Shown here piece after piece: positions 3,168 to 64,000 of a DNA stretch of 64,000 nucleotides; position 1 is the first letter of the stretch; every line of letters begins with the position of its first letter. Origin of the DNA: Coriobacteriales bacterium (GTDB taxonomy: Bacteria; Actinomycetota; Coriobacteriia; Coriobacteriales; UBA8131). The notes beneath the pieces are model-generated. The model did no database searches, was not told where the DNA came from, and saw only the letters and a list, made by a program, of their open reading frames with translations. The translations under genes and the position numbers were made by a program. The DNA lies in assembly GCA_031279835.1 (NCBI GenBank), contig JAITHV010000075.1:948-64947 (forward strand), read 5' to 3'.

Positions 3168-3200
3168 TCTGGTGTTCTCCTCGTAGCACTGGCAAAAAGC

Positions 3201-4145: not shown

Positions 4146-4167
4146 ACGTGGTTCCCTGTCTCTTTCA

Positions 4168-4794: not shown

Positions 4795-4968
4795 AATGCC
4801 TATTCCTCTCAAATCACAGGATTCATCAGTTCATGACCCTTTGGCGCCTGGGGGCGCCGGTCTGCCGTAGCGCCCCGTTGCTGACGGGGCAGGTGGCCTT
4901 CAGGGCTTGCGGCTCCCCGAGGCAGTCGGCGCACAGCCATCGTGGCCGCGCTGCCAGCCGCTCGGACC

Positions 4969-5367: not shown

Positions 5368-5735
5368 TACTTCTTCTTGCCTCCGATCTGCTTGCGTGGG
5401 CCTTTACGCGTGCGCGCGTTCGTGTGAGTGCGCTGGCCGCGCACCGGTAGACCGCGACGATGGCGAAGCCCGCGATAGCACCCGATCTCCATGAGGCGCT
5501 TGATGTTTTGCTGCACCTCTCGGCGCAGGTCGCCCTCAATCTTGAGGTTTTTGTCAATATACTCGCGGAGTCGGACCGTCTCCTCCTCAGTGAGGTCTCT
5601 GACCCGGGTGTCCGGGTCGATGTCGGTCGCTGCGAGGACCTGCTTGGCCGTAGTCAAGCCAATCCCAAAGATGTAGGTCAACCCAATCTCCACACGCTTC
5701 TCGCGCGGTAGGTCGACACCGGCAATACGCGCCAT
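5367..5735 (-). CDS. rpsM: 30S ribosomal protein S13
   Basis: [26 protein letters not shown] is S13. The TAATG junction gives a 1-nt overlap with rpsK. Confidence 0.97.
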
Positions 5736-5751
5736 CCGGCAGTTCTCCTCC

Positions 5752-5865
5752 CTAGCCCTGACGCTGCTTGTGGCGCGGGTTCTCGCAGATTACGAGCACG
5801 CGCCCATGGCGTCGGATTATCTTACATTTGTCACACATCTTTTTTACTGAAGGGCGTACCTTCAT
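5752..5865 (-). CDS. rpmJ: 50S ribosomal protein L36 (too short for the ORF track)
   Basis: Manual translation gives [37 protein letters not shown] followed by a stop. ATG at 5865-5863, TAG at 5754-5752. Confidence 0.9.
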
Positions 5866-40992: not shown

Positions 40993-41844
40993 TCAGGCTT
41001 TTTGAAGGGTTGCTTCACCAACGGTTACCGCGCAGACACCTAAAGGCGCCGCTGCGTTCTCAACGAGCAGCTGGCCGTCAAGCCCGACACCTTGCACGAG
41101 CCCCTCGGCCAGCACCATGCCGTCAGGGGACCTGACGCATACTTGCTTGTTTGCCAGTATATGATACTGTTCATATTCTTGTATAAATGGAGAGAAAGAG
41201 AACCCGGCCTCGTGCCAGTCGCCAAGACAGCGCAGCAAGCTGTTGATGACAAGCGCAGAGACTTCCTCGCGGCTGCACGAGGTACCGGGCGCAGCGGGAA
41301 GGTCGCTCAGGCAACACGCTGTGGACGGTAGGTGCTGACCGCCGAGACCGACGTTGACACATGCGCCCACATTGACGCCAACGCCCACAACGAGCCCCTG
41401 CGCACCAGAAGGGCACAGAGGCGAGGACTCTGCCAGGATGCCTGCGGCTTTGCCCTTTACGGCAACGATGTCGTTCGGCCACTTGATCAGCAGCCCTTCT
41501 ACGAGCCCTGCGAGAGCGCGCCGCGTGGCGACTGCCGCCACGAGCGATACCGCCCCCAGCCTCTCGGGGCCAGCTGGCACCGCAAGGGCCAGCGACAGGT
41601 ACACGCCGCCCGCTGGAGAAGACCAGCTGCGCCCGAGGCGGCCGCGCCCTGCGCCTTGTCGGGCGGCGACCACCGCCTGGGGCGCGATGCGACGCGCCGA
41701 AGGACGCGCTGCAGACGTAGCGCGCAAGGCTGACTTTGCCACGTCGTTCGTCGAGCCCACTTCCTCGAAGACCTGCAGCTCGATCGTGTCGTCAAGCAGC
41801 CCGCGCAGCACGTCAGCGCGCAGCGGCTGTGTTGTATTGGCCAT
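40993..41844 (-). CDS. birA: Biotin-[acetyl-CoA-carboxylase] ligase, class I (no HTH)
   Basis: QGAGRGRLGRSWSSPAGGVYLSLAL and KWPNDIV...GKAAGILAE. Confidence 0.85.
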   Translation of the reverse strand: MANTTQPLRADVLRGLLDDTIELQVFEEVGSTNDVAKSALRATSAARPSARRIAPQAVVAARQGAGRGRLGRSWSSPAGGVYLSLALAVPAGPERLGAVSLVAAVATRRALAGLVEGLLIKWPNDIVAVKGKAAGILAESSPLCPSGAQGLVVGVGVNVGACVNVGLGGQHLPSTACCLSDLPAAPGTSCSREEVSALVINSLLRCLGDWHEAGFSFSPFIQEYEQYHILANKQVCVRSPDGMVLAEGLVQGVGLDGQLLVENAAAPLGVCAVTVGEATLQKA

Positions 41845-44366: not shown

Positions 44367-44386
44367 ACTGGTGACGTGCATCGTGT

Positions 44387-44460
44387 TGGGGTATCGTCCA
44401 ACGGCAGGACTCTGGTTTTTGGTGCCAGCTATCTAGGTTCGAATCCTGGTACCCCAGCCA
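44387..44460 (+). tRNA. tRNA-Gln (anticodon UUG), CCA encoded
   Basis: Manual cloverleaf: acceptor TGGGGTA/TACCCCA, D arm GTCC-AACGGCA-GGAC, anticodon arm CTGGT-TTTTGGT-GCCAG (U33, UUG at 34-36), T arm CTAGG-TTCGAAT-CCTGG, then GCCA. The ends resemble E. coli tRNA-Gln. Confidence 0.93.
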
Positions 44461-44597
44461 TTTGCATACGGGCATGGCCCAAGACTTTGCGTCAGCCCAA
44501 CGGGTGGGGAGCAATGCGGTGCGTCGAGACAACGCGCCTGCCGTCACGATTGCTGAGGCCGCAGGCTAAGCGTACCTTGTTGGGGAGAATAACCAGC

Positions 44598-48461
<3,864 letters not shown>

Positions 48462-48511: not shown

Positions 48512-51500
48512 CTACTCCACCGACTTCAACGAGGTCACCGGGTCGATGCGCCTCAGGCGGGGCAGCATGGCGACGAAGAGCAGCGCGCTGCACAGCACGG
48601 TGAACAGCGCGGCAAGCATGAAGCTCTGTGGACGGATCACACGAGTGAACATAAGCTCACCCATGTCTAGAGTTCCCATCACGAACTCATGGAGGAAGAC
48701 GCCCCCGACAAGTCCGAGCGCGAGCCCTATCAGCATCAGGATGGCGACCTCACGGTAGATGTACCCTGCGACTTCTCGCTGGTAGTACCCGATGACCTTG
48801 AGTGTCGCAAGCTCGCGCATGCGCTCGGTAATATTGAGGTTGACAAGGTTGTACAGCACCACGAAGGTCAGCACGCAGCAGACGGCCACCATGAACCAAA
48901 CCACATACAGCATGTTCTCAGTCACCTCGTCCACCAGCGTCTCGAGCATCGAGACGGGCTGCGAGAGCGCTATCATCTTGGTCTTCAAGAGCTCGGCCGT
49001 GAGGGCGTCAAGCTCGCTGTCAGTCAGGTCCGCCTTGAGCAGCACCGTCGCATACGGAGGGTCTTCTCCGTAGAGGGCGTAAAAATCCTCGGGCGTTATG
49101 AAGACGAAGTTGTACAGGTAGTTCTCCATCACCCCTGAGACCACGAGGTCCTTGGCTGGCTGCCCCGTGCGCTCGCAGTGCACGACGTCGCCAACGCCGA
49201 CGCCTAACACCCGCGACAGGCGCTCCGAGATGACCGCTCGGGGAAGAGAGTCGATGTCAGCGTCGGCCGACGCACCTTGTGCGCCGTCGGCCTCCATGAC
49301 GAGCTTTGGGGGGGGCGGGGGCGGAAACTCCAAAGGCGCGTGCCCGTTGCGCTCGCGGAAAGTGAGGAAGCCCTTGATAGCCTCAGAGTCCTCGACGACG
49401 TAGAGGTAGGTGATAAACCCCGCGCTCGACCGCCCGTTGGCCGAGGCCTCAAGCCCCGACGCGAAGGCGTACGCGCTCTCGTAGTCGCTAAGCCGCCTGT
49501 TGAGTTCGGTGTCGGCCGAGCTTGACGACGGCTCGCGCAGTGTGAACGCCGCCTCGTAGTGTGCGATCTCGCCGAACTGGACTTGGGCGACCGACCCGAT
49601 GGAGTCCAGCACGCCAAACACCGTCACGAGCAACGCCACCGAGCCCGTCACCCCGGTGATGGTCATCACAAGGCGCTTCTTGTAGCGGATCAGGTTGCGC
49701 AAAGTCACCCGGCCTTTAAAGCCGATGCGCCGCCACACTATGCCCACGCGCTCCAAGAACACCCGGCTGCCTGCACGAGGCGAGCCGGGTCGCATAAGCA
49801 CCGACGCAGAGCTGTAGAGGCTCGAGCGACAGGCGAAGTAGGTGACGACCGCGATCACCACGGCGCCGCCGAGCAGCCCAATTATGCAGGGTATCACCGC
49901 AGGGACAAGCTCGAACCCGTTGACCGGGTAGTTGCTCACGTACATGCTCCAAATGAGGCGCGGGATGACGAGCACTCCAAGCGCCACGCCTATCACGCCG
50001 CCTGGCAGCCCCATCGCCCAGGGGAAGAACTGGTACATGGACCCAATGGCGTCCTCAGTGAACCCGAGCGCCTTCAACGTGCCGATCTGGCTGCGCTGCT
50101 CCTCGACCATGCGCGCCATGGTCGTCAGGCACACAAGCGCCGCGATCACAAAGAAGAAGTACGGGATGACGAGCGAGAGCATGGTGATGCGCTCGGCGTT
50201 TGACTTGAAGTCCGAGAAGCCCGGCAACTCGCTGCGCGCCTGCAGCAGCCAGGTGGGCGGCCCAATCTCAGAAACCACCTTCCGGGCGGAGTCCAGGTCT
50301 GCCTGGAGCGCCTCGATAGCCGTGTTCGCCTCCTCAGACTGGTTCTGATAGCTTGACTCTCCTTGCTCAAGGGCGCTCTTGCTGCGGTCGAGCTCGGATC
50401 GAGAGCTGCTGAGCTTTCTCTCGTTTTCGTCTATCTCTTCCGCCGCCTTGCGGTACTTCTCCATGCCTGACGCGTACTCGGCGTCTTTTTGCTCCAATTG
50501 CCCACGCGACGCGAGCAGCTCGCGCTCGCTGGCAACAATCTGCTGTTGGAGCCCGCCGATCTGAGGGACCAGCGCTTCGAGCTGTGCCTGTATCTGTGCC
50601 AAGACCGCCGGGTTGGTCTCCCCGGTCATAGCGGCTATGAGGGCGTCACGCTGCGACTCAAGCTGCCCAAGCGCCTGCTTGGCGCCCGCAAGCTGCTTGT
50701 TGCCGGCGTCATAGGTCGCCCATCCGTCGTCCAGGGCTTTTTTTGCCGCCTTGAGCTCGCGCTCGCTCTCGTCAAGCTCTCGTTTTGCCTGCTCCAAGTC
50801 ACTGACGCCTTTTTGGTACGCCTCCTCGCCTGAGTGGATCTCGTCTTGGGCCGCGCTCAGCTTTTCACGGGCGTCTGCCAGCTCCTTGTCTGCCTCTGAC
50901 CGGGCTGAGTCGATCTCGCCGGCAGCCGAGTCGACCTGCTCGTTGACTGCCTGTCGCATCTCGTTTTGGCGTACTTTGGCACGCTGCTGGCAGAATGCCT
51001 CCAGAGACGCGTACTTCCTGTCGATGACGCCGGTGTACTCGTCTGAGAACGAGGGTACGCCTGCGGTGTCGGCAAGCCGCAACCCGATCACCGTGTAGTA
51101 ATCGCTCGTGAACGTCGAGGCGGGCACGTAGAGAAAGCCGGAGACCCTTCCCGATCCGATCGTCGCAGAGCCCCGCGTGTTCGATATGTACAAAGGCGTC
51201 CGCGCCTTGCCCACGACGGTGAGCATCGTCTGAGACACCAAGTCAAGGCTGGTGGGGTCGTTCTCGCCGTTGAACGTCACGACGTCGCCGACCACCAACG
51301 CCGAGTCTGCGTCCGCAACGCACTCGCCCTGCGCGAGCGGCATCCTTCCTGCCGTCAGCTTCAGCCGCGAGATCCCCGTCTGCGGGTCATGGGCCTCGCC
51401 GTTGCAGACCTCGTCAGGCAGGCTGAGCAGGGCATAGACGAGCACTTCTTCGTTATGCCGCGCCGAGATGTTGACGGCATAGCCTGGCTCGACCTCGAGC

Positions 51501-51745
51501 ACGCCTGGCTGGGCGGCAAGCGCCTCGACGTCGGCCGCGGTTATCCCCATGTCGCAAAACAGGCGGTAGTCAGACAGGTTGCGGTCCTCGAGGTAGCCGC
51601 TCATCGTCTGAAGCATGCTCGGCGCCGCTGACTGAAAGCCTGCCAAGACCGCCGCGCCAAGCGCGACCAGCACCATGAGCGAGACGAAGCGCCCGGGGGT
51701 GCGCGCCAGCTGCCGACGCGTCATCTTGCGCAGGGAGCGGCTCAT
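48512..51745 (-). CDS. MacB/FtsX-type ABC permease (1077 aa, two FtsX modules) with a very long coiled-coil ectodomain
   Basis: The start MSRSLRKMTRRQLARTPGRF at ATG 51745 overlaps the ATPase stop (ATGA). Two FtsX-type TM bundles. Approximately aa 250-495 is heptad-rich. The track ORF extends falsely to 52339 across the ATPase gene. Confidence 0.85.
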   Translation of the reverse strand: MSRSLRKMTRRQLARTPGRFVSLMVLVALGAAVLAGFQSAAPSMLQTMSGYLEDRNLSDYRLFCDMGITAADVEALAAQPGVLEVEPGYAVNISARHNEEVLVYALLSLPDEVCNGEAHDPQTGISRLKLTAGRMPLAQGECVADADSALVVGDVVTFNGENDPTSLDLVSQTMLTVVGKARTPLYISNTRGSATIGSGRVSGFLYVPASTFTSDYYTVIGLRLADTAGVPSFSDEYTGVIDRKYASLEAFCQQRAKVRQNEMRQAVNEQVDSAAGEIDSARSEADKELADAREKLSAAQDEIHSGEEAYQKGVSDLEQAKRELDESERELKAAKKALDDGWATYDAGNKQLAGAKQALGQLESQRDALIAAMTGETNPAVLAQIQAQLEALVPQIGGLQQQIVASERELLASRGQLEQKDAEYASGMEKYRKAAEEIDENERKLSSSRSELDRSKSALEQGESSYQNQSEEANTAIEALQADLDSARKVVSEIGPPTWLLQARSELPGFSDFKSNAERITMLSLVIPYFFFVIAALVCLTTMARMVEEQRSQIGTLKALGFTEDAIGSMYQFFPWAMGLPGGVIGVALGVLVIPRLIWSMYVSNYPVNGFELVPAVIPCIIGLLGGAVVIAVVTYFACRSSLYSSASVLMRPGSPRAGSRVFLERVGIVWRRIGFKGRVTLRNLIRYKKRLVMTITGVTGSVALLVTVFGVLDSIGSVAQVQFGEIAHYEAAFTLREPSSSSADTELNRRLSDYESAYAFASGLEASANGRSSAGFITYLYVVEDSEAIKGFLTFRERNGHAPLEFPPPPPPKLVMEADGAQGASADADIDSLPRAVISERLSRVLGVGVGDVVHCERTGQPAKDLVVSGVMENYLYNFVFITPEDFYALYGEDPPYATVLLKADLTDSELDALTAELLKTKMIALSQPVSMLETLVDEVTENMLYVVWFMVAVCCVLTFVVLYNLVNLNITERMRELATLKVIGYYQREVAGYIYREVAILMLIGLALGLVGGVFLHEFVMGTLDMGELMFTRVIRPQSFMLAALFTVLCSALLFVAMLPRLRRIDPVTSLKSVE

Positions 51746-52446
51746 GTGGCCAGGTCCTCGGCCTTGCGAGGCGACAGGTTCTTCACGAGACTGTCTATCT
51801 GGCCGTTTCGGACGGTGATGACTTTTTGCGCCAGCTCCGTGATGTCGTTGTTGTGGGTAATGAGCACGACGGTCATGCCCGAGTCCTCGCTCGTCTTTTG
51901 GAGCAGCGAGAGTATCTGGATGCCCGTGGCCTCGTCGAGCGCGCCAGTTGGCTCGTCGCACAGCAGCAGCTTGGGGTTCTTCACGAGGGCGCGGGCGATG
52001 GCGACACGCTGCTGCTCGCCGCCAGAAAGCTGCGAGGGAAAGCTGTTCATGCGATGCGAGAGCTCGACGGCGTCGAGCATCGCGCGCGGCGATGCCGGTC
52101 GCTTGCACACCTCGGCGGCAAGCTCGACGTTCTCGAGCGCGGTCAAGTTGGGGATAAGGTTGTAGAACTGGAACACGAAGCCGACGCTGTTGCGGCGATA
52201 CGATGCCAGCCGCCGCTCGTTGTAGCGGGTGATTTCTTCCCCGTCCACGGTGACAGTGCCCGAAGAGCGCCGGTCGATGCCGCCCAAAATGTTCAGGATG
52301 GTAGTCTTGCCGGCCCCCGATGGACCAACGATGGCACAAAACTCGCCCTGCTCAACGATCAGGCTCACTTCTTTGAGCGCAGTGGCCTTCGTCTCGCCCT
52401 GCCGATACACTTTTGACACATCACGAAACTCAATATAAGGCGCCAT
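51742..52446 (-). CDS. ABC transporter ATP-binding protein (MacB/LolD-like)
   Basis: GPSGAGKTT, LSGGEQQRVAIARAL, LLLCDEPTGALD. Confidence 0.92.
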   Translation of the reverse strand: MAPYIEFRDVSKVYRQGETKATALKEVSLIVEQGEFCAIVGPSGAGKTTILNILGGIDRRSSGTVTVDGEEITRYNERRLASYRRNSVGFVFQFYNLIPNLTALENVELAAEVCKRPASPRAMLDAVELSHRMNSFPSQLSGGEQQRVAIARALVKNPKLLLCDEPTGALDEATGIQILSLLQKTSEDSGMTVVLITHNNDITELAQKVITVRNGQIDSLVKNLSPRKAEDLAT

Positions 52447-52760
52447 GCCCCTCCCTCATATTTCCCTTGTCCGCACGACACGCCAAAAAGACCTGCTCGC
52501 CAGTCCGCTTGGATGCCTCGTCATATGCTCGTAGCTATGCTAGCAAAGACCAGGTTCATTAACAAGGGGTCCTTTTCTCGCAATTTGTGAGCTTGTGGAT
52601 GACTTTGGGCCACAGGACGCTCGCTCACCAAGCTCACGCCAGCGTCACTGTTCATGGCAGACTCCCATCTAACTTCACTGATTGCTCGGGGGGGGACGGC
52701 GGCATTGTCCGCACGATGCGCTGGCAGGTCCTTGAGGTGGACCCTGCGACTACGGCGCTT

Positions 52761-52826
52761 CGCGCCTTTGCACAGGATGACGAGCTGCGAACATGCCCCT
52801 CGTCCGTCATCCTGCGCAAAGGCGCG
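52761..52826. repeat. Long inverted repeat (22-bp arms, 1 mismatch, 22-nt spacer) in the divergent control region
   Basis: Left arm CGCGCCTTTGCACAGGATGACG (52761-52782) and right arm CGTCATCCTGCGCAAAGGCGCG (52805-52826), with a single A/C mismatch. Confidence 0.8.
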
Positions 52827-52949
52827 CGCAGTTGTCGTCAGGGGCCTCCAACGGTATCATTGTCGCTGAAGAGTTACACGGGCGCTTCACGTCATCTGTC
52901 GGCCTCAGGGTCAGGCGTGCCCGAAAAGCCAGCGAGAAAAGGGGTTGCC

Positions 52950-53246
52950 ATGGTCGCGATACCTCCAACAGGCGTCACCGCAGACGAGGTGCTGCGCGAG
53001 CTCATTGAGGTGCTTGCCTCAGTGCTCGGCGAAGAAGTTGTAGCCGTCATGGACGTGAGCGCCGAGAGCAGCTTTGTGCGCGACCTCGAGATGGACAGCA
53101 TAGCCATCGTCGCCTTCGCCTCAGAAGTCAACGAGCGCTTCGGCGAGCGTGTGGACTTCATTGCCTGGCTGCGCGGCCAGTCGCTGCGCTCGCTTCAAAA
53201 GCTCACGGTCAAAGACGTGGCCGACTTTATCGTTCAGGGTCGCTGA
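52950..53246 (+). CDS. Discrete acyl carrier protein
   Basis: 98 aa. ADEVLRELIEVLASVLG...SFVRDLEMDSIAIVAFASEV has the DSI phosphopantetheine-attachment motif. ATG 52950 has a GAGAAAAGGGG RBS. The upstream 121 open codons of the track ORF do not look protein-like. Confidence 0.8.
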   Translation: MVAIPPTGVTADEVLRELIEVLASVLGEEVVAVMDVSAESSFVRDLEMDSIAIVAFASEVNERFGERVDFIAWLRGQSLRSLQKLTVKDVADFIVQGR

Positions 53247-54098
53247 GTGGCGCTTGACGAGCGTTTTGTCGCGGTTGGCACAAAAAAAGTCCATGTGGTC
53301 GAGATGCGGCCAGACGCGCCGCTCCGGCCGCCAACAGAGGCGCTGGCGCCGTCCGCACACGACATGCCGAGCGCCGGCGCACAAGCACTCGTCATGCTCC
53401 ACGGGCTGTTCTCCAACCTGAGCCTCTACTTTTTCAGAATAGCACCTTCATTAGCACATACTTATCGGGTTGTTATATATGACCTCCGCAGCCACGGCCT
53501 GAGCGAGCGGGCATCGGGGGCCCACACGCTCGAGGTCTTGTCCGAAGACCTGCTCGCCCTCATGGACGCTCTCGAAATCGAGAAGGCCGCGCTCGCCGGC
53601 CACAGCTACGGCGGGACGGTCGCGCTGCTCACTGCCCTGCAGCACCCCGAGAAGGTCAGCCAGCTGGCGCTCATCGACGCGCCGTGCCTCACTGAGCCGC
53701 GGTTCGCCGCCGCGCGCCTCAGACAGCGGCTCTCGCACGGGCGGGTCACCGACCGCTCTGTGGCGCGCTATGCAAGCGCCGCCGGCCTGTCTGCCCAGGC
53801 GCGCCGCTCACCGAAGTCTCAGGAACAAATTCGGTACTTGCTCACCGAAGGCAGACTCGAGGCCTCGTTTTCAGCCGGGCGCACGACGATGCAGTCGCTT
53901 GACCTGGGGCGCCTGGCCATGCCGACGCTGCTGTTGTACGGCACGCGCTCTCCCTTTCGCGCAACAGGGCGGCGCCTCAAGGCCGCGATTCCCTGTTCCG
54001 TCCTAGAACTGGTCGAGGGAGGCCACGACTTCCCGGTAAAAAGCGCTCCACAGCTGACCGAGCACCTCGCCTGCTTTTTAGCAGGCACGGGTATTTGA
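53247..54098 (+). CDS. Alpha/beta-fold hydrolase (possible thioesterase/acyl hydrolase)
   Basis: VMLHGLFSN oxyanion region, the GHSYGG nucleophile elbow and a C-terminal GGHDFP. The GTG start directly abuts the ACP TGA. Confidence 0.8.
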   Translation: MALDERFVAVGTKKVHVVEMRPDAPLRPPTEALAPSAHDMPSAGAQALVMLHGLFSNLSLYFFRIAPSLAHTYRVVIYDLRSHGLSERASGAHTLEVLSEDLLALMDALEIEKAALAGHSYGGTVALLTALQHPEKVSQLALIDAPCLTEPRFAAARLRQRLSHGRVTDRSVARYASAAGLSAQARRSPKSQEQIRYLLTEGRLEASFSAGRTTMQSLDLGRLAMPTLLLYGTRSPFRATGRRLKAAIPCSVLELVEGGHDFPVKSAPQLTEHLACFLAGTGI

Positions 54099-54317: not shown

Positions 54318-54428
54318 TTTCTTGAGAGTGTTCTGCGGCTCAAGGGGCTGTGATCCTAAGTATAGGGTAGAGGACTCAGGGAACAAGGGGCCATGGTCTT
54401 GCTATGGCTTTGCAGAGAAGGGCACCAT

Positions 54429-57400
54429 ATGAACATGAGACTGTGTTGCATATCGCCGTTTGAACGGCCCGATTGCAACTTGGTGAAGTCCGCGTTGAAA
54501 GCAGGTGCCTTTGGCGTCTTGCACCTCGGGGCTGATCCTGTTGTCGCAACTGCCGCACTTGAGGAGATGGCGGCTCGAACCGCTCTCAACTTCGGCGTCT
54601 GCTTGTCCGACGAGTCGCTTTCTGGGCTTGCGCTGCCCGAGCAAGTCGCTGTCGTCATGCTCCCCTGGGGGATGACGCCGCCTCAGCAGGCCGCCAACCC
54701 CGCGTACGAGGTCATATGGCAGGTCAGCACTGTGCCAGAGGCCTGCGAGGCATTGGAGACAAACCCCTCATCAATCATACTCAAAGGCTGCGAGGGAGCC
54801 GGTGCTTGCAGCGCAGACTCTGCCTTCCTGTTGTTCCAGGCGCTGCGCGAGCGTTGTCTTGAGGCAGGCGTCAGCATCTACATCCAAGGCGGCATCGGCA
54901 TACACACAGCAGCCGCCTACCTCGCGCTCGGCGCCAGCGGCGTCGTCATGGACTCACAGCTCGCGCTCTTCGCCGAGTGCGGCACGTCGCCTGAGCTCAA
55001 GGCCGCCCTTGGACGCCTGAGCGGCAACGAGATCCGCGAGCTGGACGGCTTCCGGTATTTCGTGCGCCCCGGTGGCGCAGAGCCCCCGCAGGACGCAGGG
55101 GTCACCGGACTCAAAGAGCATATGGCGCAGGCGACTCAGGACTGCATGCCGCTCGGGCAAGACGTCATACTCGGCGCCGAGCTCGTGCGCCGCTACGGAA
55201 GCCTCAAGCGGCTCGTGCGTGCTATCGGCCGAGCACCCCTCGGCTACCTACGCCTCGCCCAGTCGCTTGGCTGCCTTGCCCCAGGAGACGAGCTTGCCTC
55301 CGACTTGGGGACCGAGCTTCCCCTCGCACAAGGGCCAATGGCGCGCATCAGCGACGTACCGCAGTTCTTGCGCAGCGTCGCCGACGAGGGCGCGCTCCCC
55401 TACCTGGCCATGAGCATGACGACCGGCAGCCGCGCCGCAGAGTCGCTGGCCGCAGTCAAAGACGCGCTCGACGGCAAGGCATGGGGCGTCGGCATACTCG
55501 GCTTTATCTATCCTAAAGTCCTTGAGGAGCAGACCCGCCTCATCATCGAGGCCCACCCCCCTGTGGTGCTCATTGCCGGAGGGCGCCCTTCGCAGGCGCG
55601 CGCCTTCGAGCAGGCCGGCATCCAGGTGTTCTTGCATGTTCCGACAGCAAGCCTTCTCGACATGTTCCTGAAAGAAGGCGCCCGAAGCTTCGTCTTCGAG
55701 GGCCGCGAGAGCGGCGGGCATGTTGGCCCGCTCCCGTCAGCGGTGCTTTGGGACAAGCAAGTCAGCCGCCTCCTTGAGATCGACGACATCTCCTCGCTCA
55801 AGCTGTTCTTCGCTGGCGGCGTCCACGACGCGCTCTCTGCGGCATTCGTCAGGGTGCTCGCCTCCCAGCTGGTGGCCCGCGGCGCCAAGGTAGGACTGCA
55901 GGTTGGCACTGCCTACCTTTACACTGACGAGGCCGTAAGCACGGGCGCCATCACCGAGGGCTACCGCAAACAGCTCGTCGAGGGCACGGCCACCTTGCTG
56001 CTCAAGTCAGGTGCCGGTCAAGAGAGCCGTTGCATCCCCTCGGCCTTCACGGACTATTTTGAGCAAGAGCGCCAGCGCATGCTCGACGAGGGGCTCGAGA
56101 TGACCGACGTGCTCATGCGTCTTGAAGAGCTCAACTTGGGCAGGCTGCGCATCGCGTCAAAAGGCGTCGAGCGCCAAGGCGATGCCCTCGTGCAGCTCGA
56201 CGCGCGCGAACAGGGCGACAAAGGCCTGTTCATGACCGGCGCCGTGACGCCCCTCATTAACGAGACCGGCACGATACCAGCCCTGCACGACGCCCTTTTT
56301 GCGTCGAGCGCACAGCTCCTGGGCGCTCTGGGCGCCTCGGGCGACGCAGGCGACGCGGCGGCAACGACGGGCGGCAGAGGCCTAGCCCACATCGGCGACG
56401 GCGCCTCGGGCTCGAGCCCCCACACGTTGCCGGCCTGCGACGTGGCCATTGTCGGCATGGAGTGCATCTTTCCCGACGCCGCAAACAAAGACGAGTACTG
56501 GCGCAATATCCTGCTCGGACGCAACAGCATCCGCGAGGTCTCCCCTGACCGCTGGCAGGCTGAGCTGTTTTACGACCCTGAGGCAAGCGACACCGACCAC
56601 GTGGTCTCCAAATGGGGCGGGTTCATCGACGCCTCGGACTTTGACGCCCTCGAGTTCGGCATCACGCCACAGTCGCTTGCCGCCATCGAGCCGGTCCAGC
56701 TACTGAGCCTGCTGGTGGCCAAGCGCGCGCTTGCAGACGCAGGCTACACCGACCTCTCAGCGATCGACATGGAGGACACTTCGGTGATCTTCGGCGGCCA
56801 AGGCGCCGGCGAGCTGACCGTCTCTTACACTACGCGCTCCGAGATGCGCCGCTTTTTTGGCGCGCTGCCCCCCGAGGCCGCAGCAGTACTGCCGAGGCTG
56901 ACGGAGGACTCGTTTCCGGGCGTTTTGTCCAACCTCATATCGGGGCGCATCACAAACCGCCTCAACATGGGCGGCCGCAACTACACGGTAGACGCGGCCT
57001 GCGCCTCGTCGCTTGCCGCGCTCGACATCGCCTACACCGAGCTGGCCTGCGGAAAGGCCGACATGGTTGTGCTCGGTGGCGCTGACGCCCATAACGGCAT
57101 CGGGGACTTCCTCATGTTCGGGAGCACCTATGCCCTTTCTCGCACCGGCAGATGCTCGACCTTTGACGCTGAGGCCGACGGCATAGCATTGGGAGAAGGC
57201 GTCGGCGTGGTCATACTCAAGCGCCTTGACGACGCGCGGCGCGACGGCAACAAGATCTACGCGGTCATCAAGGGCATTGGAGGCAGCAGCGACGGCAAAG
57301 TCCTCGGGCTGACTGCCCCAGACAAGCAAGGCCAGCAACGCGCGATGGAGCGCGCGTACGCCGCCGCAGGCGTCGACCCCGCACAGATCGGCCTCATCGA

Positions 57401-60400
57401 GGCCCACGGCACCGGTACCGTCGTCGGCGACCGCGCCGAGCTCGAGGCGCTCAACGAGCTCTTCCTCGACTTTGGAACGCAACCGGGCCGCATTCGCGTC
57501 GGCTCGGTCAAGACGCAGATCGGGCACACAAAGTGTGCGGCCGGCGTCGCAGGGCTCATCAAGACAGCCCTCAGCGTCCAGCACGGGCTTCTCCCTCGGA
57601 CCCTGAACCTCAAGCACCCCAACGGGGCGTGGCTGCCCAACGGCCCCTTCAGCTTCCGCACCGAGTCGGTGGGCTACTGGAACGACCCGGTGCGCCTTGC
57701 GGGTGTGAGCGGCTTTGGCTTCGGCGGCACGAACTTCCATGTCATAGTCGGGAACCACGAGGAGGCACGGCCGGCCGTGCCGCTCAAGTCCTGGCCTGCC
57801 GAACTGCTCGTCTTCCGTGGCGCGACGCCCGAGGAGGCCTGCGAGCCTATGCGCAAGATCGTCGAGCTGTTCGCGGTCAATGACAGCATATGCCTCAAAG
57901 ACATAGCGTTCACGCTCGCCTCACAGGCAGGCTCGGCGCCCATCCAGTTCAGCATCGTCGCCACAAGCCGCGACGGCTTGCTTGCCTCCATCGAGGCAGC
58001 GCTTGCAGGCGCCCCCGACGAGCACACCTTTGCCCGTCGCCCAATCGAGGGCAAGGTGGCCTTCTTGTTCCCCGGCCAGGGCAGCCAACGAACGCACATG
58101 GCCGCCGGGCTGTTCACGCTGTTCCCCCGCATGCGCCGCCTGCTTGACGCTCATCCGGAGTACTTATGCCTGCTGTTCCCTGACGCTGTGTTCACCGATG
58201 AGGCACGGCGCGCCCAACAACTGGCCGTCACCGACACACGCAATGCCCAGCCATTGCTCGGCATTGTCGACCTCGCGCTCGCGACGCTGCTGCGCGACCT
58301 CGGCGTTCAGGCCGACATGGCGGCTGGGCACAGTTACGGCGAGCTCGTCGCACTGTGCTTCGCCGGCGCCTTCGAGGAGTCCTGCCTCGTAAGCCTGAGC
58401 GCCCAGCGCGCCGAGGCGGTGCTTGGCGCCGTGGGCGACGACCCCGGCCGCATGGCGGCGGTCCGCACCGACACAGACACCCTCGAGGCGCTGCTCGATG
58501 GCGCTGCAGACGTGTGGGCGGTCAACTACAATGCCCCCAAGCAGACCGTTGTCGCCGGCACGGGCCCAGGGCTTGACGCCTTTCTCGCCAAGCTCGATGC
58601 GGAGAAGGTCAGCTATGCCGAGCTCGACGTGGCCTGCGCCTTCCACAGCCCGCTGCTCGCCGGGGCACAAGACAGCTTCGCCGCCGTCCTCAAGGACGTC
58701 GCCTTCAAGAAGCCGTCGGTGCCCGTCTGGTCAAACACCACCGCCGAGGCCTACCCTACAACCGCCCCGGCGATACGCGCGCGCCTCGCCGAGCAGCTGG
58801 TGAGCCCGGTGCGCTTCGCGCGCGAGATCGAGAGCATGTACGACGACGGCGCCCGCGTGTTCATCGAGGCCGGCCCTGGCGCGACTTTGACCACGCTGGC
58901 AGGAAGGACGATAAAAGACAAAGGGATCGCCTGCATTCAGACTGAGCGAGCAGACAAAGAGTGCCTTGAGTTCCTGCTTACAGGCCTGGCACACTACCTA
59001 GCGACCGGGAGGGAGATCAGCATGGACAAGTTGTACGAAGGCAGAGACGCACAGGAAGTCAACATCGACAAACCCGAGGCCCACAAGAAGAACGCCACGG
59101 TCTGGAAAGTGGACGGAGGGCGCGCGGTGCCCGAGTTCGGCGAGCTGCCCGCGCATGCCGGCACCCCCGTGACCCGGCCGCTCCTCTCGCTGTCTGCCCT
59201 CGCGTCTTCTGCAGGCAACCACAACGTCGAAGACGTCGTGATGGCGTTTCTCGACAACGTGAACAACATCATGCAAGACCAGCGCGACGTCATGCTCGGC
59301 TACCTCGGCTCGCCTGAGACAGCTCCTCGCTCAGCACCTGTGCAGCGCACGTTCGTCTTCGCCGATGACGGCAGCCCGCTCCAGGGCACCAGTGACGCCT
59401 CCGGCGGTCCGGTCCCGGTCGAGGCCACGGTCATCGAGAGCGCAGCGCCCGGCGCGCCAGCCGCGGGCAGCGGCCTGCCCGACATCCGCGACCTCTCTAC
59501 CGAGCAGATCACCGAGATCGTCCTCAGCATCATCAGCGACAAGACCGGGTACCCGACCGACATGCTCGGGCTCGACGTCAACCTCGAAGCCGACCTGAGC
59601 ATTGACTCCATAAAGAAGGTCGAGATCGTCGGCGGCCTGCGCGACCGCGTGAACCTCCCCGAAGAGGGCGAGGACATGGACGACTTCTTTGAGAAGATGA
59701 TAGCGATAAAGACCATCCGCTCGTTGGTGGAGTGGATCCAGGAGATGGGCGCGGCCATTGGCGACGAGGAGGCCGGGCAGACAGCGCTTGAGGGAGTCGT
59801 CGAGGCGTCCTCGGCCGAAGGCGAGGGAAGCACGCAGGCTTCGCCCGCCGTTACGGCAGTCACCGCGGCCGCAACGGCCGCCGCCGCCGGCGGCGGAGCC
59901 GCCGCCGACTCCGCCGTCATCGACGACGTGGTCCGCATGATCCTCACGAAGACCTCAGTCCCCCTCGGCGAGACCGACGAGTCGGTGCTCGAGGGAAAGC
60001 GAATTGCCGTCACCGACGACGGCAAGGGACTTGCGGCCGGCGTGGTCGCCGCGCTGGGCGACAAAGGCGCCGAGGCGGTCCTCGTCACCCTGGCCGACCT
60101 CGGCCCTGACGGGCTTGCGCCCTTTGACGGGCTCGTGCTCGTAAGCTCAGCCGCAGGGACCCACTACACAGCAGCAGACCTGTTCGGCCTCCTGAAGACC
60201 GCCGACATGACGCGTCTTCGTTGGGCGGCAGTCTTCGACGACCTTCCTGCCGAGCTCCTGCGCGCGCGCAAGTCGTTCAAGCTTGAGCGGCTAGAGGGCT
60301 TCTCCGGCCTTATCAAGTCGCTCTGCCACGAGTATCCGGGCGTTCGCCTGAGCATGGTCGAGTTCGACGTGGCCATGGACGCGGCGACGCTTCCGGCCAT

Positions 60401-61385
60401 AGTCGTCAGCGAGCTGTGCGCTACGTCGCCCTTCCCCGAAGTCTTCTACGAGGGCGCAAAGCGCTTTGCGCTCCTGCCGCATGTGGCAGACCTCCCTGAC
60501 GGCGAGCCGCACGACCTGGGGCTAGACAGCTCCTCGCTCGTGCTCGTTCTCGGCGGGGCCCAAGGCATCACGCCACACCTCGTGGGCGGGCTCGCAAAGA
60601 CCTACCCCTGCCGCTACCTGCTCGTGGGAAGCACCGCCCCCGCCACGCCTGAAGAAGAGCAGGCCTACGCGCAGCTCGCTGGGCGCGACGAGATACGTCG
60701 CCACCTCATCGACGTCGAGGGCATGAAGCAGCCACGCGAGATCGAGCAAAAGACAGCGCGCATTGCCAAGACCAAGCAGATTGCTGCCACGCTCTTGGCC
60801 TTTGAGGCACTCGGCGCCACTGCGAGCTATCACAGCGTTGACGTCACCGAAACTGCAGCCCTGCGCAGCTTCGTCCGCGCCGTCGTAGCTGAGCACGGCA
60901 CGATCGACGGCGTGGTCCACGCCGCAGGCATCTTGGAGGACAAGCGCTTCTGTGACATGGCGCAGGACTCCTTCGAGCGCGTCTACCGCACCAAGACCGC
61001 GCCTCTGGCCGTCATCGCCGAGGAGCTGCTCGGCGGCCTCAAGCTGCTCGTCATGTTCAGCAGCATGTCCTCGGCCCTCGGCAACGCCGGACAATGCAAC
61101 TATGCCGCCGGTAACAGCGTCTTTGACATAACCGCCCGCATCCTCAGCAAGAAGCAGCCTGAGCTGCGCGTCATGGCCTTCAATTGGGGCCCCTGGAAGG
61201 GCACCGGCATGGTGAACGACACCCTCGAGGCCGAGTTCCGCAAGCGCGGCATCTCCCTTCTCACGCTCGAAAAGGGCATCCCCTTCTTCTGTGACGAGCT
61301 TGAGAAGGGCACACAGCCTTCAGTCCTCGCCATTGCCGGACAAAAAGAGGAGGTCGGGCGCTTCATTGAGTCCAGCCTGCAGTGA
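54429..61385 (+). CDS. Pfa-type (PUFA-synthase-like) type I megasynthase. Domain order: NMO-like, NMO/FabK-type ER, KS, AT, ACP, KR.
   Basis: ER: LAQGPMARISD...FEGRESGGHVG. KS: TVDAACASS (Cys codon 57000-57002), EAHGTGT, KTQIGHTKCAAG, GFGGTNFHV. AT: FLFPGQGSQ, GHSYGE (Ser codon about 58332), CAFHSP. ACP: LEADLSIDSIKK. KR: VLGGAQGITPHL, NAGQCNYAAGN. Start set at ATG 54429 (GAAGGG RBS); the track start is 54393. Confidence 0.92.
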   Translation: MNMRLCCISPFERPDCNLVKSALKAGAFGVLHLGADPVVATAALEEMAARTALNFGVCLSDESLSGLALPEQVAVVMLPWGMTPPQQAANPAYEVIWQVSTVPEACEALETNPSSIILKGCEGAGACSADSAFLLFQALRERCLEAGVSIYIQGGIGIHTAAAYLALGASGVVMDSQLALFAECGTSPELKAALGRLSGNEIRELDGFRYFVRPGGAEPPQDAGVTGLKEHMAQATQDCMPLGQDVILGAELVRRYGSLKRLVRAIGRAPLGYLRLAQSLGCLAPGDELASDLGTELPLAQGPMARISDVPQFLRSVADEGALPYLAMSMTTGSRAAESLAAVKDALDGKAWGVGILGFIYPKVLEEQTRLIIEAHPPVVLIAGGRPSQARAFEQAGIQVFLHVPTASLLDMFLKEGARSFVFEGRESGGHVGPLPSAVLWDKQVSRLLEIDDISSLKLFFAGGVHDALSAAFVRVLASQLVARGAKVGLQVGTAYLYTDEAVSTGAITEGYRKQLVEGTATLLLKSGAGQESRCIPSAFTDYFEQERQRMLDEGLEMTDVLMRLEELNLGRLRIASKGVERQGDALVQLDAREQGDKGLFMTGAVTPLINETGTIPALHDALFASSAQLLGALGASGDAGDAAATTGGRGLAHIGDGASGSSPHTLPACDVAIVGMECIFPDAANKDEYWRNILLGRNSIREVSPDRWQAELFYDPEASDTDHVVSKWGGFIDASDFDALEFGITPQSLAAIEPVQLLSLLVAKRALADAGYTDLSAIDMEDTSVIFGGQGAGELTVSYTTRSEMRRFFGALPPEAAAVLPRLTEDSFPGVLSNLISGRITNRLNMGGRNYTVDAACASSLAALDIAYTELACGKADMVVLGGADAHNGIGDFLMFGSTYALSRTGRCSTFDAEADGIALGEGVGVVILKRLDDARRDGNKIYAVIKGIGGSSDGKVLGLTAPDKQGQQRAMERAYAAAGVDPAQIGLIEAHGTGTVVGDRAELEALNELFLDFGTQPGRIRVGSVKTQIGHTKCAAGVAGLIKTALSVQHGLLPRTLNLKHPNGAWLPNGPFSFRTESVGYWNDPVRLAGVSGFGFGGTNFHVIVGNHEEARPAVPLKSWPAELLVFRGATPEEACEPMRKIVELFAVNDSICLKDIAFTLASQAGSAPIQFSIVATSRDGLLASIEAALAGAPDEHTFARRPIEGKVAFLFPGQGSQRTHMAAGLFTLFPRMRRLLDAHPEYLCLLFPDAVFTDEARRAQQLAVTDTRNAQPLLGIVDLALATLLRDLGVQADMAAGHSYGELVALCFAGAFEESCLVSLSAQRAEAVLGAVGDDPGRMAAVRTDTDTLEALLDGAADVWAVNYNAPKQTVVAGTGPGLDAFLAKLDAEKVSYAELDVACAFHSPLLAGAQDSFAAVLKDVAFKKPSVPVWSNTTAEAYPTTAPAIRARLAEQLVSPVRFAREIESMYDDGARVFIEAGPGATLTTLAGRTIKDKGIACIQTERADKECLEFLLTGLAHYLATGREISMDKLYEGRDAQEVNIDKPEAHKKNATVWKVDGGRAVPEFGELPAHAGTPVTRPLLSLSALASSAGNHNVEDVVMAFLDNVNNIMQDQRDVMLGYLGSPETAPRSAPVQRTFVFADDGSPLQGTSDASGGPVPVEATVIESAAPGAPAAGSGLPDIRDLSTEQITEIVLSIISDKTGYPTDMLGLDVNLEADLSIDSIKKVEIVGGLRDRVNLPEEGEDMDDFFEKMIAIKTIRSLVEWIQEMGAAIGDEEAGQTALEGVVEASSAEGEGSTQASPAVTAVTAAATAAAAGGGAAADSAVIDDVVRMILTKTSVPLGETDESVLEGKRIAVTDDGKGLAAGVVAALGDKGAEAVLVTLADLGPDGLAPFDGLVLVSSAAGTHYTAADLFGLLKTADMTRLRWAAVFDDLPAELLRARKSFKLERLEGFSGLIKSLCHEYPGVRLSMVEFDVAMDAATLPAIVVSELCATSPFPEVFYEGAKRFALLPHVADLPDGEPHDLGLDSSSLVLVLGGAQGITPHLVGGLAKTYPCRYLLVGSTAPATPEEEQAYAQLAGRDEIRRHLIDVEGMKQPREIEQKTARIAKTKQIAATLLAFEALGATASYHSVDVTETAALRSFVRAVVAEHGTIDGVVHAAGILEDKRFCDMAQDSFERVYRTKTAPLAVIAEELLGGLKLLVMFSSMSSALGNAGQCNYAAGNSVFDITARILSKKQPELRVMAFNWGPWKGTGMVNDTLEAEFRKRGISLLTLEKGIPFFCDELEKGTQPSVLAIAGQKEEVGRFIESSLQ

Positions 61386-61478: not shown

Positions 61479-64000
61479 GTGACAGCAGCAAACAAAGACA
61501 TCGCCATCGTCGGCATCTCCCTGCTTTGCCCCGCAGGAGACTGTGTCGAGGAGTTCTGGCACAGTATAGCAACAGGTGGCGACTTTATCACCGAGATACC
61601 AGACAACATCATCGAGTCCTTTTACTTTGACAAGGACAGCTCAGCCGCCGACCGCTTCTACTGCAACAAGGGCGGCGTGAGCAAGCCATGCTGGGTGGAC
61701 CCTTTGCGCTACGGGCTTCTCCCCGTGACGGTCAAGGGGCTTGACCCTGAGCAGCTTATCTCGCTCAGCCTCGTAGAGCGCGCGCTCATTGACGCGGGGG
61801 TGTATGAGAAGGACCTGCCGCTCAACAAGGGCAGCATGATCATCGGAAGAGGGAGCTTTCCCGGCGTCGTGACATTGCGCTGCAACGAGATAGTGCGTTC
61901 CTCCAACCAGCTTGTGCTGCTGCTCAAAGAGGCGCTGCCCTCGCTGAGCGACGAGGACCTCAACCAGTTCAGGAAGGTGTACCAGTCTCGCCAGGGGATG
62001 TTCCAGTCAGACACCGCCATCGGGACGATGCCCAACCTCATCGCCTCGCTCGTTGCGAACCGCTTCGACATGCAAGGCCCCGCCTACCTGCTCGACGCCG
62101 CCTGCGCGAGCGGCATCGTCGCCATCGACCACTCGATCACGCTTCTGCGCAGCGGACAGTGCGATATAGCGGTCGCCGGCGGCATGCACGCGGGCCACAG
62201 CTCTATGTTCATGAGCGCCTTCAACATGATGGGCGCCATGACACACAAAGGGCAGATCACCCCCTTTGCCAAAAACGCCGACGGGCTGATCGTCGGCGTG
62301 GGCGAGGCGTTCATCGTGCTCAAGACCCTCGAGAAGGCCGAGCGCGACGGCGACCGCATCTATGCCGTCATAAAAGACACGGCCGTGTGCAGCGACGGCG
62401 GCGGCTCCCACGTGACAGTCACTTCTGTCCCCGGCGAAGTGCGCGTCATGGACCTCGCCTGGAAGAAGGCCGGGATGGACCCGGCCAAAATTGGCTATGT
62501 CGAGGCGCATGGGACCGGCACGCCTGTCGGGGACCGCGTGGAGATAACGGCGCTCAAGGAGTTCTTCGGCGACTCCAGCACGCCCCGCGCCTGGGTGGGC
62601 TCCCTGAAGTCGAATGTCGGCCACATGATGGGCGCCGCAGGCATCATGGGAGTCATCAAGGCGGCACTTGCCCTGTACTACCGCACCATTCCGCCGACCC
62701 TGCACTGCGAAGAGCCGCTGCCCGTCATGTTCGAGTCGCGCTTCCTGCCGCCCTCCGAGGCAATCCCCTGGGACGAGGACCAGTATCCCCTTGTCGCCGC
62801 AGTCAACGCGTTTGGCTTTGGCGGCATCAACTCGCACGCCATTCTGACCGCTTACAAGCCGTCTGCAGGCGCGCCGCCTCAGCCGCTCCCCCGCCCCTGG
62901 CTCGGGGAGACGATCATGCTCTCTGCCCCCGACAAAGAGGCACTTGTCGCCAAAGTCAAAGCGGGCGATTTCACCGACACGGGCGGCAGCTGGCGCATCG
63001 CCCTGTTCGACCCCACCGAGAAGCGCCTTGCGCTCGCCCTCTCCATCATTGACAAGGGAGTGCCTTGGCGCGGCCGCTCGGACATCTGGTTCAGCAACGA
63101 GCAGCTGCTGACCGAAGGCGGCAAGACGGTCTTCATGTTCCCGGGCTTCTTCCCTGAGGAGGCGCCCGACACAGACGACCTGACCGGTTGCCTTGGCCTT
63201 CCGATGCGCGACCAGGTCGTCGACGAGCTTGTCGCCCTGATAAAAGACCCCAGCTCGGTCAAACGCGAAGGCATCCGCAACATGGAGACCGTCTGCGCAC
63301 AAGACCTGATGCTGCGCGCCTTTGACAAGCTCGGCATCAAGGCAGACCTGTACATCGGCCACAGCATCGGCGAGTGGATGGCAAACACCTTCGCCGGCAA
63401 CGGGACCTCTGAGGACTTCTCCGAGATCATCAAGCTCGTCGGCGACTCCCAGACCGAGCACACGCATCCCTTTATCGCCGTCAGCGTCGACCTCGACACC
63501 GCGCTCACATGGTGCGCTCAGATACCCGGCCTGTACGTCTCCAATGACAACTGCCCTGGACAGATCCTCATGTGTGGGGAGAAGGCCGCGCATGACACGC
63601 TGCTCGAGCTGCTTGAGCGCGAGAGGGTCTTCTACACGGTCTTGCCTTTTGGCAGCGGCATGCACACGCCGCTTTGGAACGACCGGCTCGACAAGTCCAT
63701 GGCCAGCCTCGACCTCTTCGAGAACGTGCAGGGGTCGGTCCCCGTCTGGTCTGCAACGACGCTAGAGCCTATCCCCACCAACTCCGAGGAGTACCGCACG
63801 CTCGTCCGACGACAGCTCGTCGAGCCGGTCTACTTTCGCGAGCTGACCGAGAAGCTCTACCACGAGCAAGGCGCGCGTCTCTTTGTGCAGATCGGCTCCG
63901 GCAACCTCGTGGGCTTTGTGGAGAACACGCTCAAGGGCTTGCCGTTCGGCGCGGTGTCCACCGTGTCGCCCGGTCGCAGCGCGCTCGCGCAGATGCGACG
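61479..64000 (+). CDS. Second Pfa-type synthase subunit (KS followed by a GHSIGE acyltransferase-like domain), 3' end beyond the window. Absent from the ORF track because there is no stop in the window.
   Basis: Manual translation from GTG 61479 (in-frame TGA at 61440) gives VTAANKDIAIVGISLLCPAG...LLDAACASGIVAIDHS (Cys codon 62103-62105), VEAHGTGTPVGD, LKSNVGHMMGAAG, AFGFGGINSHAIL, then KTVFMFPGF...LYIGHSIGEWMA. The frame is open to position 64000. Confidence 0.88.
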   Translation, partial: MTAANKDIAIVGISLLCPAGDCVEEFWHSIATGGDFITEIPDNIIESFYFDKDSSAADRFYCNKGGVSKPCWVDPLRYGLLPVTVKGLDPEQLISLSLVERALIDAGVYEKDLPLNKGSMIIGRGSFPGVVTLRCNEIVRSSNQLVLLLKEALPSLSDEDLNQFRKVYQSRQGMFQSDTAIGTMPNLIASLVANRFDMQGPAYLLDAACASGIVAIDHSITLLRSGQCDIAVAGGMHAGHSSMFMSAFNMMGAMTHKGQITPFAKNADGLIVGVGEAFIVLKTLEKAERDGDRIYAVIKDTAVCSDGGGSHVTVTSVPGEVRVMDLAWKKAGMDPAKIGYVEAHGTGTPVGDRVEITALKEFFGDSSTPRAWVGSLKSNVGHMMGAAGIMGVIKAALALYYRTIPPTLHCEEPLPVMFESRFLPPSEAIPWDEDQYPLVAAVNAFGFGGINSHAILTAYKPSAGAPPQPLPRPWLGETIMLSAPDKEALVAKVKAGDFTDTGGSWRIALFDPTEKRLALALSIIDKGVPWRGRSDIWFSNEQLLTEGGKTVFMFPGFFPEEAPDTDDLTGCLGLPMRDQVVDELVALIKDPSSVKREGIRNMETVCAQDLMLRAFDKLGIKADLYIGHSIGEWMANTFAGNGTSEDFSEIIKLVGDSQTEHTHPFIAVSVDLDTALTWCAQIPGLYVSNDNCPGQILMCGEKAAHDTLLELLERERVFYTVLPFGSGMHTPLWNDRLDKSMASLDLFENVQGSVPVWSATTLEPIPTNSEEYRTLVRRQLVEPVYFRELTEKLYHEQGARLFVQIGSGNLVGFVENTLKGLPFGAVSTVSPGRSALAQMR

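Follow-up and report, generated by a model that had tools for sequence, protein, structure and literature searches.

A 64,000-nucleotide stretch of DNA from a Coriobacteriales bacterium (contig JAITHV010000075.1), referred to below as the window, contains a megasynthase gene (54429..61385, + strand) whose product starts with two FabK-like TIM barrels in tandem, followed by KS, AT, ACP and KR domains, as deduced from the list of open reading frames (ORFs), their translation, Pfam and NCBIfam. The N-terminal barrel (copy 1; 54429..55268, +, aa 13-292) has the fold of FabK and NMO proteins, including a small lid, but not the catalytic and flavin mononucleotide (FMN) hallmarks, and is termed here a pseudo-enoyl reductase (pseudo-ER). 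The second one (copy 2; 55290..56342, +, aa ~300-650), assigned by comparison with Pfam, NCBIfam, the Protein Data Bank (PDB) and Foldseek, is a FabK-type FMN-dependent enoyl reductase (ER), also made of a barrel and a lid. In the reading that we favour, at a probability of roughly 0.55, copy 1 would be a pseudo-reductase pairing within the same polypeptide with the active copy 2, as CLF does with KS, the geometry of this pairing being a prediction. Amino acid (aa) numbers of the megasynthase are counted from 54393.

An earlier note on this DNA, made from the sequence alone, had proposed two tandem NMO/FabK-type barrels before the KS, and all the motifs that it quoted were located as written in ORF 54393..61385(+), those of copy 1 being CISPFERPD (aa 19-27), IILKGCEGAGACS (aa 128-140) and IYIQGGIGIHTAAAYLALGASGVVMDSQ (aa 162-189). 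Single-sequence comparisons were too weak to establish the homology of copy 1, so that profiles were required. A BLASTP alignment of aa 1-300 against aa 301-669 rendered an E value of 0.017 over 104 aa, in the register that had been proposed; copy 1 alone matched the Pfam NMO family (PF03060) with 19.7 bits (E 6e-4), short of the gathering cut-off of 28 bits, and scored 16 bits against TIGR03151, the cut-off of which is 453; and a phmmer search with aa 1-669 rendered no PDB match to copy 1. A precomputed PF03060 match is present on copy 1 of several homologues. With a profile built from six copy-1 sequences, the Thermotoga FabK structures 5GVH, 5GVJ and 3BO9 were matched with an E value of 5e-19, three further FabKs with values of 1e-13 to 1e-15, and NMOs with values of 1e-5 to 1e-7. 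The alignment of the two halves, weak by BLASTP, became decisive when the columns of copy 1 were compared by hhalign with those of copy 2 in an alignment of 65 homologues, which rendered a probability of 98.3% and an E value of 1.8e-14 over 219 columns at ca. 18% identity. Modelled on its own with AlphaFold2 (AF2), copy 1 has eight beta/alpha units and a small lid (pLDDT 93.5, pTM 0.91), and the top PDB matches of this model in Foldseek were FabK and NMO (E 3e-11, TM 0.72-0.75). These profile and model comparisons indicate that copy 1 is a genuine FabK-fold domain, the first 290 aa being related to the NMO/FabK fold by profile and by structure alike, and the tandem arrangement is thus confirmed.

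The fate of the active-site residues in copy 1 was followed in 216 near-complete family members, with motifs defined as in PMC13311796 and FMN contacts taken from that work and from the FabK review PMC9260719. As the counterpart of motif I (QGPMxRxSD), the alignment with FabK and copy 2 places SPFERPD (54453..54473, +, aa 21-27), in which Phe23 occupies the position of the Met that contacts FMN in FabK-type ERs; Met is found there in none of the 216 sequences, which carry F (123), L (22), P (21), A (14) or C (12), among others. The counterpart of motif III (EGxExGGH) is KGCEGAGA (54783..54806, +, aa 131-138), in which G132, E134 and G137 are kept. The Glu that touches the ribityl and isoalloxazine moieties in FabK-type ERs is replaced by Lys131 (K or R in 204/216), and the catalytic His (H144 of SpFabK, H1776 of scERb) by Ala138. 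His is found at this position in one sequence out of 216, and the residues present instead are variable (R117, W26, L20, A9, K8, among others), which fits a site that is out of use. The beta7/beta8 loops, QGGIGIHT...GVVMDSQL (54885..54962, +, aa 165-190), correspond to the FMN-binding stretch A188-F195 of SpFabK, which is conserved among all FabKs (PMC9260719); the GG is kept, H171 and Q189 are conserved, and the Gly-Thr of FabK-type ERs is replaced by D187-S188, with Asp at position 187 in 206 sequences and Gly in one. Copy 1 therefore does not retain the full set of FMN and catalytic residues, and the loss of hallmarks that had been noticed in the window (His, motif-I Met and GT loop) is family-wide. 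The single sequence with His at the catalytic position is P0168, a 2289-aa homologue (AKGAESGGHIG); it has VLDTQL instead of the GT loop and may represent an intermediate state.

Copy 1 also has a near-invariant set of its own, comprising K/R131, E134, GG166-167, H171, D187, Q189, E195 and R221. The conserved positions include glycines (G132 in 216, G137 in 210, G166 in 216, G167 in 215 and G169 in 211 sequences), and conservation extends to E134 (212), H171 (179), T172 (184), Q189 (207) and E195 (206), as well as to the later positions E213 (203), R221 (208), Q256 (194) and D257 (177). The replacements of Glu by Lys at position 131 and of Gly by Asp at position 187 co-occur in 194 of the 216. 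The copy 1 of the window is somewhat more degraded than the consensus, with EGAGA where most relatives have E-x-G-G. When mean information content was compared, the catalytic-face loops of copy 1 reached 2.41 bits versus 2.21 elsewhere in the domain, and those of copy 2 reached 3.63 bits versus 2.63, which shows that the constraint on the active site is relaxed in copy 1.

The motifs of copy 2 are located at aa 311-321 (LAQGPMARISD), 433-445 (FVFEGRESGGHVG), 471-477 (LFFAGGV) and 504-509 (VGTAYL), and little or no variation from the patterns QGPMxRxSD, EGxE[CS]GGH, AGG[IV]HD and G-x3-GTAYL is seen in copy 2 of 65 homologues. All 65 have the Q, G, P, M, R, S and D of motif I (QGPMARISD, 55329..55355, +, aa 313-321) and the residues E436, G437, E439, G441, G442 and the catalytic His443 of motif III (EGRESGGH, 55698..55721, +, aa 436-443); in the FMN phosphate loop, G505-T506 (55905..55910, +), the Gly is present in 65/65 and the Thr in 63/65. 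Copy 2 matched Pfam NMO with an E value of 3.4e-15, the FabK model TIGR03151 with 4.6e-19 and PDB FabKs with 2e-11. Against TIGR03151, 76.4 bits were obtained with the whole protein and 68.8 with copy 2 by itself, neither of which reaches the equivalog cut-off of 453.1, so that copy 2 is FabK-like and not a FabK orthologue. In the AF2 model of aa 1-680 (pLDDT 92.6, pTM 0.92), the best PDB match was FabK 2Z6I, with a TMt of 0.88. The assignment of copy 2 to the PfaD/trans-ER type, made in the earlier note, was not borne out and has been rejected: TIGR03151 was the sole NCBIfam match at E <= 1 for both halves, with no PfaD model among the matches; the PDB sequence matches included FabK and NMO only, and no PfaD; the TMt to PfaD (4YX6, 4Z9R) was 0.53-0.54, versus 0.88 to FabK; and motif III (EGxExGGH) has the length found in FabK. 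Judging from the hallmarks kept, which are all of them, copy 2 is predicted to be a normal FMN-dependent FabK-type enoyl-ACP reductase.

When cluster representatives (50% identity) were searched exhaustively with the copy-1 profile, 595 clusters were matched at E <= 1e-30 and 1293 at E <= 1e-10. The full-length matches are mostly proteins of 2200-2900 aa in which copy 1 spans residues ~5-280 and in which the profile also gives another match, weaker than the first. It is this search of representatives, together with the use of the didomain as query, that makes the large family visible, a word-indexed search with copy 1 alone having rendered 5 fragments. Local domain assignment was carried out on 261 retrieved proteins, and copy 1 followed by copy 2 was found in 68 of the 68 that were full-length (>=1500 aa); the only four cases of copy 2 alone are truncated ORFs, in each of which the match begins with the very first residue. 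A scan of genomes for patterns derived from copy 2 rendered 581 loci, and the best 80 of those 581 all carried copy 1, in the same order, in Bacillota, Actinomycetota, Myxococcota, Planctomycetota, Acidobacteriota, Gemmatimonadota, Proteobacteria and Bacteroidota (Chryseobacterium, Pedobacter, Chitinophaga and Dyadobacter). The pair is thus not specific to the window, and its distribution indicates that the two copies form an obligate unit.

The didomain of Listeria cornellensis is called as an ORF of its own, of 615 aa, ahead of the KS-AT gene. The cluster of this organism (AODE01000039.1, 10001-21371) is distributed over six or more ORFs (didomain, KS-AT, KR, KS, an AT-containing one and ACPS) that overlap, by 35 and 29 nucleotides at two of the junctions. 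It could either be truly dissociated or consist of pseudogenes with many frameshifts. In a 3.9-kb metagenome contig of 2.4x coverage (1550-3035), copy 1 is called as a gene of its own, of 286 aa, and the beginning of copy 2 as another, one base away. This contig was discarded as a natural split of the two copies, since such a coverage is too error-prone; a sequencing frameshift may be the cause.

The origin of the two copies was addressed with hidden Markov models (HMMs) built from 65 sequences each, with four FabK fragments as targets. The copy-1 HMM scored 76-105 bits against these fragments and the copy-2 HMM 65-76 bits, while the median score of the copy-1 HMM on copy-2 sequences was 39 bits and that of the copy-2 HMM on copy-1 sequences was 14 bits. 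In a joint alignment copy 1 is collinear with FabK and copy 2 has insertions of its own. Since each copy scores higher on FabK than on its neighbour, a recent internal duplication followed by decay is unsupported and was rejected, and the internal duplication with a decayed first copy that the earlier note had suggested loses its footing. The pair may come from an ancient duplication or from the fusion of two FabK-family paralogues. Nor does the idea of a degenerate local relic hold for copy 1, which is old, widely conserved and always coupled to copy 2, with near-invariant residues of its own.

Pairing of the pseudo-reductase with the active copy 2 is proposed because the two barrels are always coupled, because the two-domain model is rigid, with the relative placement of the barrels confidently fixed (aa 1-680, pTM 0.92), and because the catalytic residues of copy 1 are lost. 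In the proposed mechanism, copy 1, which has lost the proposed catalytic His and the residues by which FMN is held at its isoalloxazine ring and its phosphate, would bind no FMN. The conserved polar residues K131, H171, D187 and Q189 could fill or re-purpose the former cofactor pocket, and the co-conserved changes of Glu to Lys at 131 and of Gly to Asp at 187 may plug it. Copy 1 would then pack on copy 2 inside one chain, as an intramolecular pseudo-heterodimer with dimer-like geometry, and would offer a partner surface stabilising the sole active ER, as the inactive CLF partners KS. Packing within the chain is proposed because the TIM-barrel ERs are dimeric enzymes, FabK as a homodimer (PMC9260719) and the ERs in Pfa, FAS and PKS systems likewise in dimeric form (PMC13311796).

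Two features weigh against this reading. The polar residues conserved on the former active-site face of copy 1 (K/R131, E134, H171, T172, D187, Q189, E195, E213 and R221) go beyond what a pure scaffold would obviously need and leave room, as sequence conservation goes, for ligand binding or a new activity. Moreover, the GG at 166-167 and most of E-x-G-G are kept, and copy 1 may bind a phosphate-containing ligand. It is conceivable, although we consider it unlikely, that copy 1 has been repurposed, either as an enzyme or for the binding of a ligand. The old pocket would then be used with the new residues K131, E134, H171, D187 and Q189, for example in an isomerase- or dehydratase-type step or to bind NAD(P)H, ACP or its phosphopantetheine arm; a pairing role would be compatible with it. 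Such a use would account for polar residues kept near-invariant at the C-terminal ends of beta6-beta8 (K/R131 in 204, E134 in 212, H171 in 179, D187 in 206 and Q189 in 207 of the 216) and for the persistence of the phosphate-loop glycines (216/216 and 215/216), and it has a parallel in the dehydrogenase/isomerase FabX, which is among the structural neighbours found by Foldseek, the NMO fold supporting other chemistry. However, the catalytic-face loops are scarcely more conserved than the rest of copy 1 (2.41 versus 2.21 bits; in copy 2, 3.63 versus 2.63); the motif-I loop is variable (F123, L22, P21, A14, C12, among others), motif III is further degraded in the window (EGAGA), and the new residue set matches no known family or motif in Pfam, NCBIfam or profile-versus-PDB searches. 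A KR, an ER and a probable DH are already in the cluster, so that no step lacks an enzyme. We regard as decidedly doubtful the proposal that copy 1 goes beyond a scaffold and is a new domain, built on the FabK barrel, for catalysis or the handling of substrates without flavin, by means of K131, E134, H171, D187 and Q189; such a domain might isomerise or gate enoyl- or acyl-ACP intermediates, or bind the ACP arm and so select the cycles in which reduction takes place.

It seems very improbable to us that copy 1 functions as an FMN enoyl reductase too, with non-canonical residues, in which case the synthase would have two active ERs, for example for different chain lengths. The 65-sequence profile of copy 1 does score higher against the FabK fragments (76-105 bits) than that of copy 2, and E134, GG166-167, E195 and R221, which are common to FabK, are retained, but the His is missing in 215 and the Met in all 216 sequences, the position equivalent to the His is not conserved, the Glu contacting the ribityl and isoalloxazine moieties is Lys or Arg in 204, and the Gly-Thr has become Asp-x in 206, where the Asp would oppose the FMN phosphate. 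Still harder to sustain, to the point that we give it almost no credence, is a recent, lineage-specific and functionless duplicate of copy 2 in the course of decay. The greater degeneracy of the window's copy 1 with respect to the consensus (19.7 bits against NMO; EGAGA in place of E-x-G-G) is what would be expected from it, but a copy 1 present at a constant position in at least 595 clusters (50% identity, E <= 1e-30) and in many phyla, folding confidently in AF2, carrying near-invariant residues of its own and scoring, like copy 2, better on FabK than on its neighbour is not. A structural or repurposed role for the first copy, as the earlier note had put it, is a sensible reading, and the pseudo-reductase partner of copy 2 is the form of it that we prefer.

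A comparison with known systems shows where the pair departs from them. With FabK (TIGR03151; 2Z6I, 5GVH, 7L00, 9PL0) both copies share the TIM-barrel-plus-lid fold, collinearly, and copy 2 has every FabK motif, including EGxExGGH with the putative catalytic His. In contrast to FabK, two differing FabK-like barrels are here in one chain and joined to KS-AT-ACP-KR, copy 1 is without the His, the Met and the GT, and both copies are far under the TIGR03151 cut-off (76 and 16 versus 453). With PfaD and the ERs of trans-AT polyketide synthases (PKSs; 4YX6, 6LKC, 4CW5, 4Z38) the window shares an FMN TIM-barrel ER serving a PfaA-like KS-AT-ACP-KR protein; PfaD-type ERs, however, have an N-terminal subdomain of ~50-80 aa where a whole second barrel is found here. 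Fusions of pfaD to pfaA, paired with one of pfaBC to a phosphopantetheinyl transferase (PPTase), have been described in Aquimarina and Flavobacterium; Renibacterium is similarly organised, and a pfaDA fusion is reported in Ottowia as well (PMC13291983), and the cluster layout of types L-N of Shulse and Allen (PMC3098273) agrees with that of the window. The fused pfaDA systems are described in both works with a single ER, whereas the window has two barrels.

Two TIM-barrel ERs in one synthase have been termed unique to thraustochytrids (PMC13311796, 2026), in which ERb depends on ERc, its heterodimer partner, to fold and to bind FMN, and is insoluble and FMN-free without it (PMC13311796). ERb/ERc (9SDD) resembles the window pair in having two paralogous TIM-barrel ERs per synthase, the pairing being observed there and predicted here. 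ERb and ERc, however, belong to different polypeptides and are 89% identical, both with the catalytic His and both FMN-binding, whereas the barrels of the window are fused in tandem, at ~18% identity, and one of them is stripped of its catalytic residues. The likeness to KS-CLF (type II PKS, PfaC), in which an active domain has an inactive conserved paralogue as its obligatory dimer partner, is an analogy only, since the fold and the chemistry are others and the pairing of the barrels is predicted. As the earlier note had suspected, textbook Pfa systems do not have this arrangement. Literature searches on tandem, pseudo or double ERs and on the ER-KS architecture rendered nothing relevant, and others rendered only known PfaD and pfaDA papers, none of them with a second barrel. 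The pairing is apparently widespread in databases and unrecognised in the literature.

As regards the gene itself, an alternative ATG is located upstream, at 54393, which would give a protein of 2330 aa (ORF 54393..61385, +). The ATG at 54429 (Met13), already taken as the start in the earlier note, is judged the likelier true start because alignments of homologues with the megasynthase begin only at about aa 13-20; a Shine-Dalgarno-like sequence, GAAGGG, lies upstream of it. Pfam matches were NMO at aa 382-565, KS at 683-1073, AT at 1224-1512, a single ACP at 1709-1756 and KR at 2051-2269, the stretch from KS to KR corresponding to 56439..61199 (+). The top NCBIfam match was PfaA (TIGR02813), with 837.9 bits, below the cut-off of 1010.1 bits, and tandem ACPs, a hallmark of PfaA, were not detected, Pfam finding just one PP-binding domain in the megasynthase. 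By its domain order (KS-AT-ACP-KR) the protein would be PfaA-like, not a canonical PfaA. The ER and the KS are joined by a Gly/Ala/Ser-rich linker of low confidence (56343..56438, +, aa ~651-682; AF2 pLDDT <50 for aa 655-679). Long Ala/Gly/Ser-rich low-complexity linkers are also present on both sides of the single ACP (59400-60500, aa ~1560-2040), and the ~290 aa from ACP to KR, which have no domain assignment, may be the structural subdomain of the KR.

A second megasynthase gene, starting with KS-AT, follows on the same strand and runs off the end of the window (61479..64000, +; translation and Pfam), its start being approximate (GTG at 61479 or 61452). A full-length homologue of it in a metagenome-assembled genome of Coriobacteriia (L054, 13379-17833) has the order KS-AT, a weak match to PS-DH (E 0.003) and PPTase (ACPS), and the weak match sits in a stretch of ~560 aa otherwise without assignment. 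The ER-KS-AT-ACP-KR gene followed by a KS-AT gene corresponds to the layout of fused pfaDA plus fused pfaBC-PPTase, similar to type M of Shulse and Allen, with the reservation that for the end of the second gene, incomplete in the window, the match leans on L054, where the DH is weak. Taken from domain content and order, the best reading is that the gene encodes a PfaD-PfaA-type fused megasynthase for a secondary lipid or fatty acid, in which the reductase unit would be a didomain. In L054, genes of acetyl-CoA carboxylase (BCCP, biotin carboxylase and carboxyltransferase; 1339-5767, -) adjoin the synthase, which hints at a primary, fatty-acid-type role there.

Directly upstream of the megasynthase lie, abutting each other, the genes of a 219-aa protein (52587-53246, +) and of an alpha/beta hydrolase (53247-54098, +; Pfam), which bears the JGI name pimeloyl-ACP methyl ester carboxylesterase. 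Pfam places an ACP domain in the C-terminal third only of the 219-aa protein, the N-terminal ~130 aa of which have no family match. Both genes probably belong to the cluster, and the hydrolase may be its release enzyme; the cluster of L. cornellensis is likewise flanked by an alpha/beta hydrolase. Further upstream, the window contains a biotin/lipoate ligase-family gene (40993-41844, -), a gene for a hybrid sensor kinase of 1361 aa that combines GAF, HisKA/HATPase and two receiver domains and has a hemerythrin domain at its C-terminus (44376-48461, +) and, convergent with the latter, an ORF of 1275 aa with FtsX-type permease domains (48512-52339, -).

The TIM-barrel ERs of polyunsaturated fatty acid, fatty acid and polyketide synthase systems (PUFA, FAS and PKS) are thought to act as homodimers. 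Thraustochytrid ERb/ERc is the sole two-ER synthase reported, and the bacterial pair is different and far more widespread, with an active ER covalently preceded by a stripped paralogue in hundreds of bacterial species. If the pseudo-dimer is true, the ER would be the second case, after KS/CLF, of a dead paralogue retained as an obligatory partner in an assembly line, and this would explain how an ER that requires a dimer can stand at the N-terminus of a megasynthase. If copy 1 were catalytic instead, there would be an enzymatic step that has gone unrecognised in a large uncharacterised class of bacterial lipid synthases. As to annotation, pipelines would count one ER in these proteins, or two wrongly, and the engineering or expression of the ER from these synthases probably needs both barrels.

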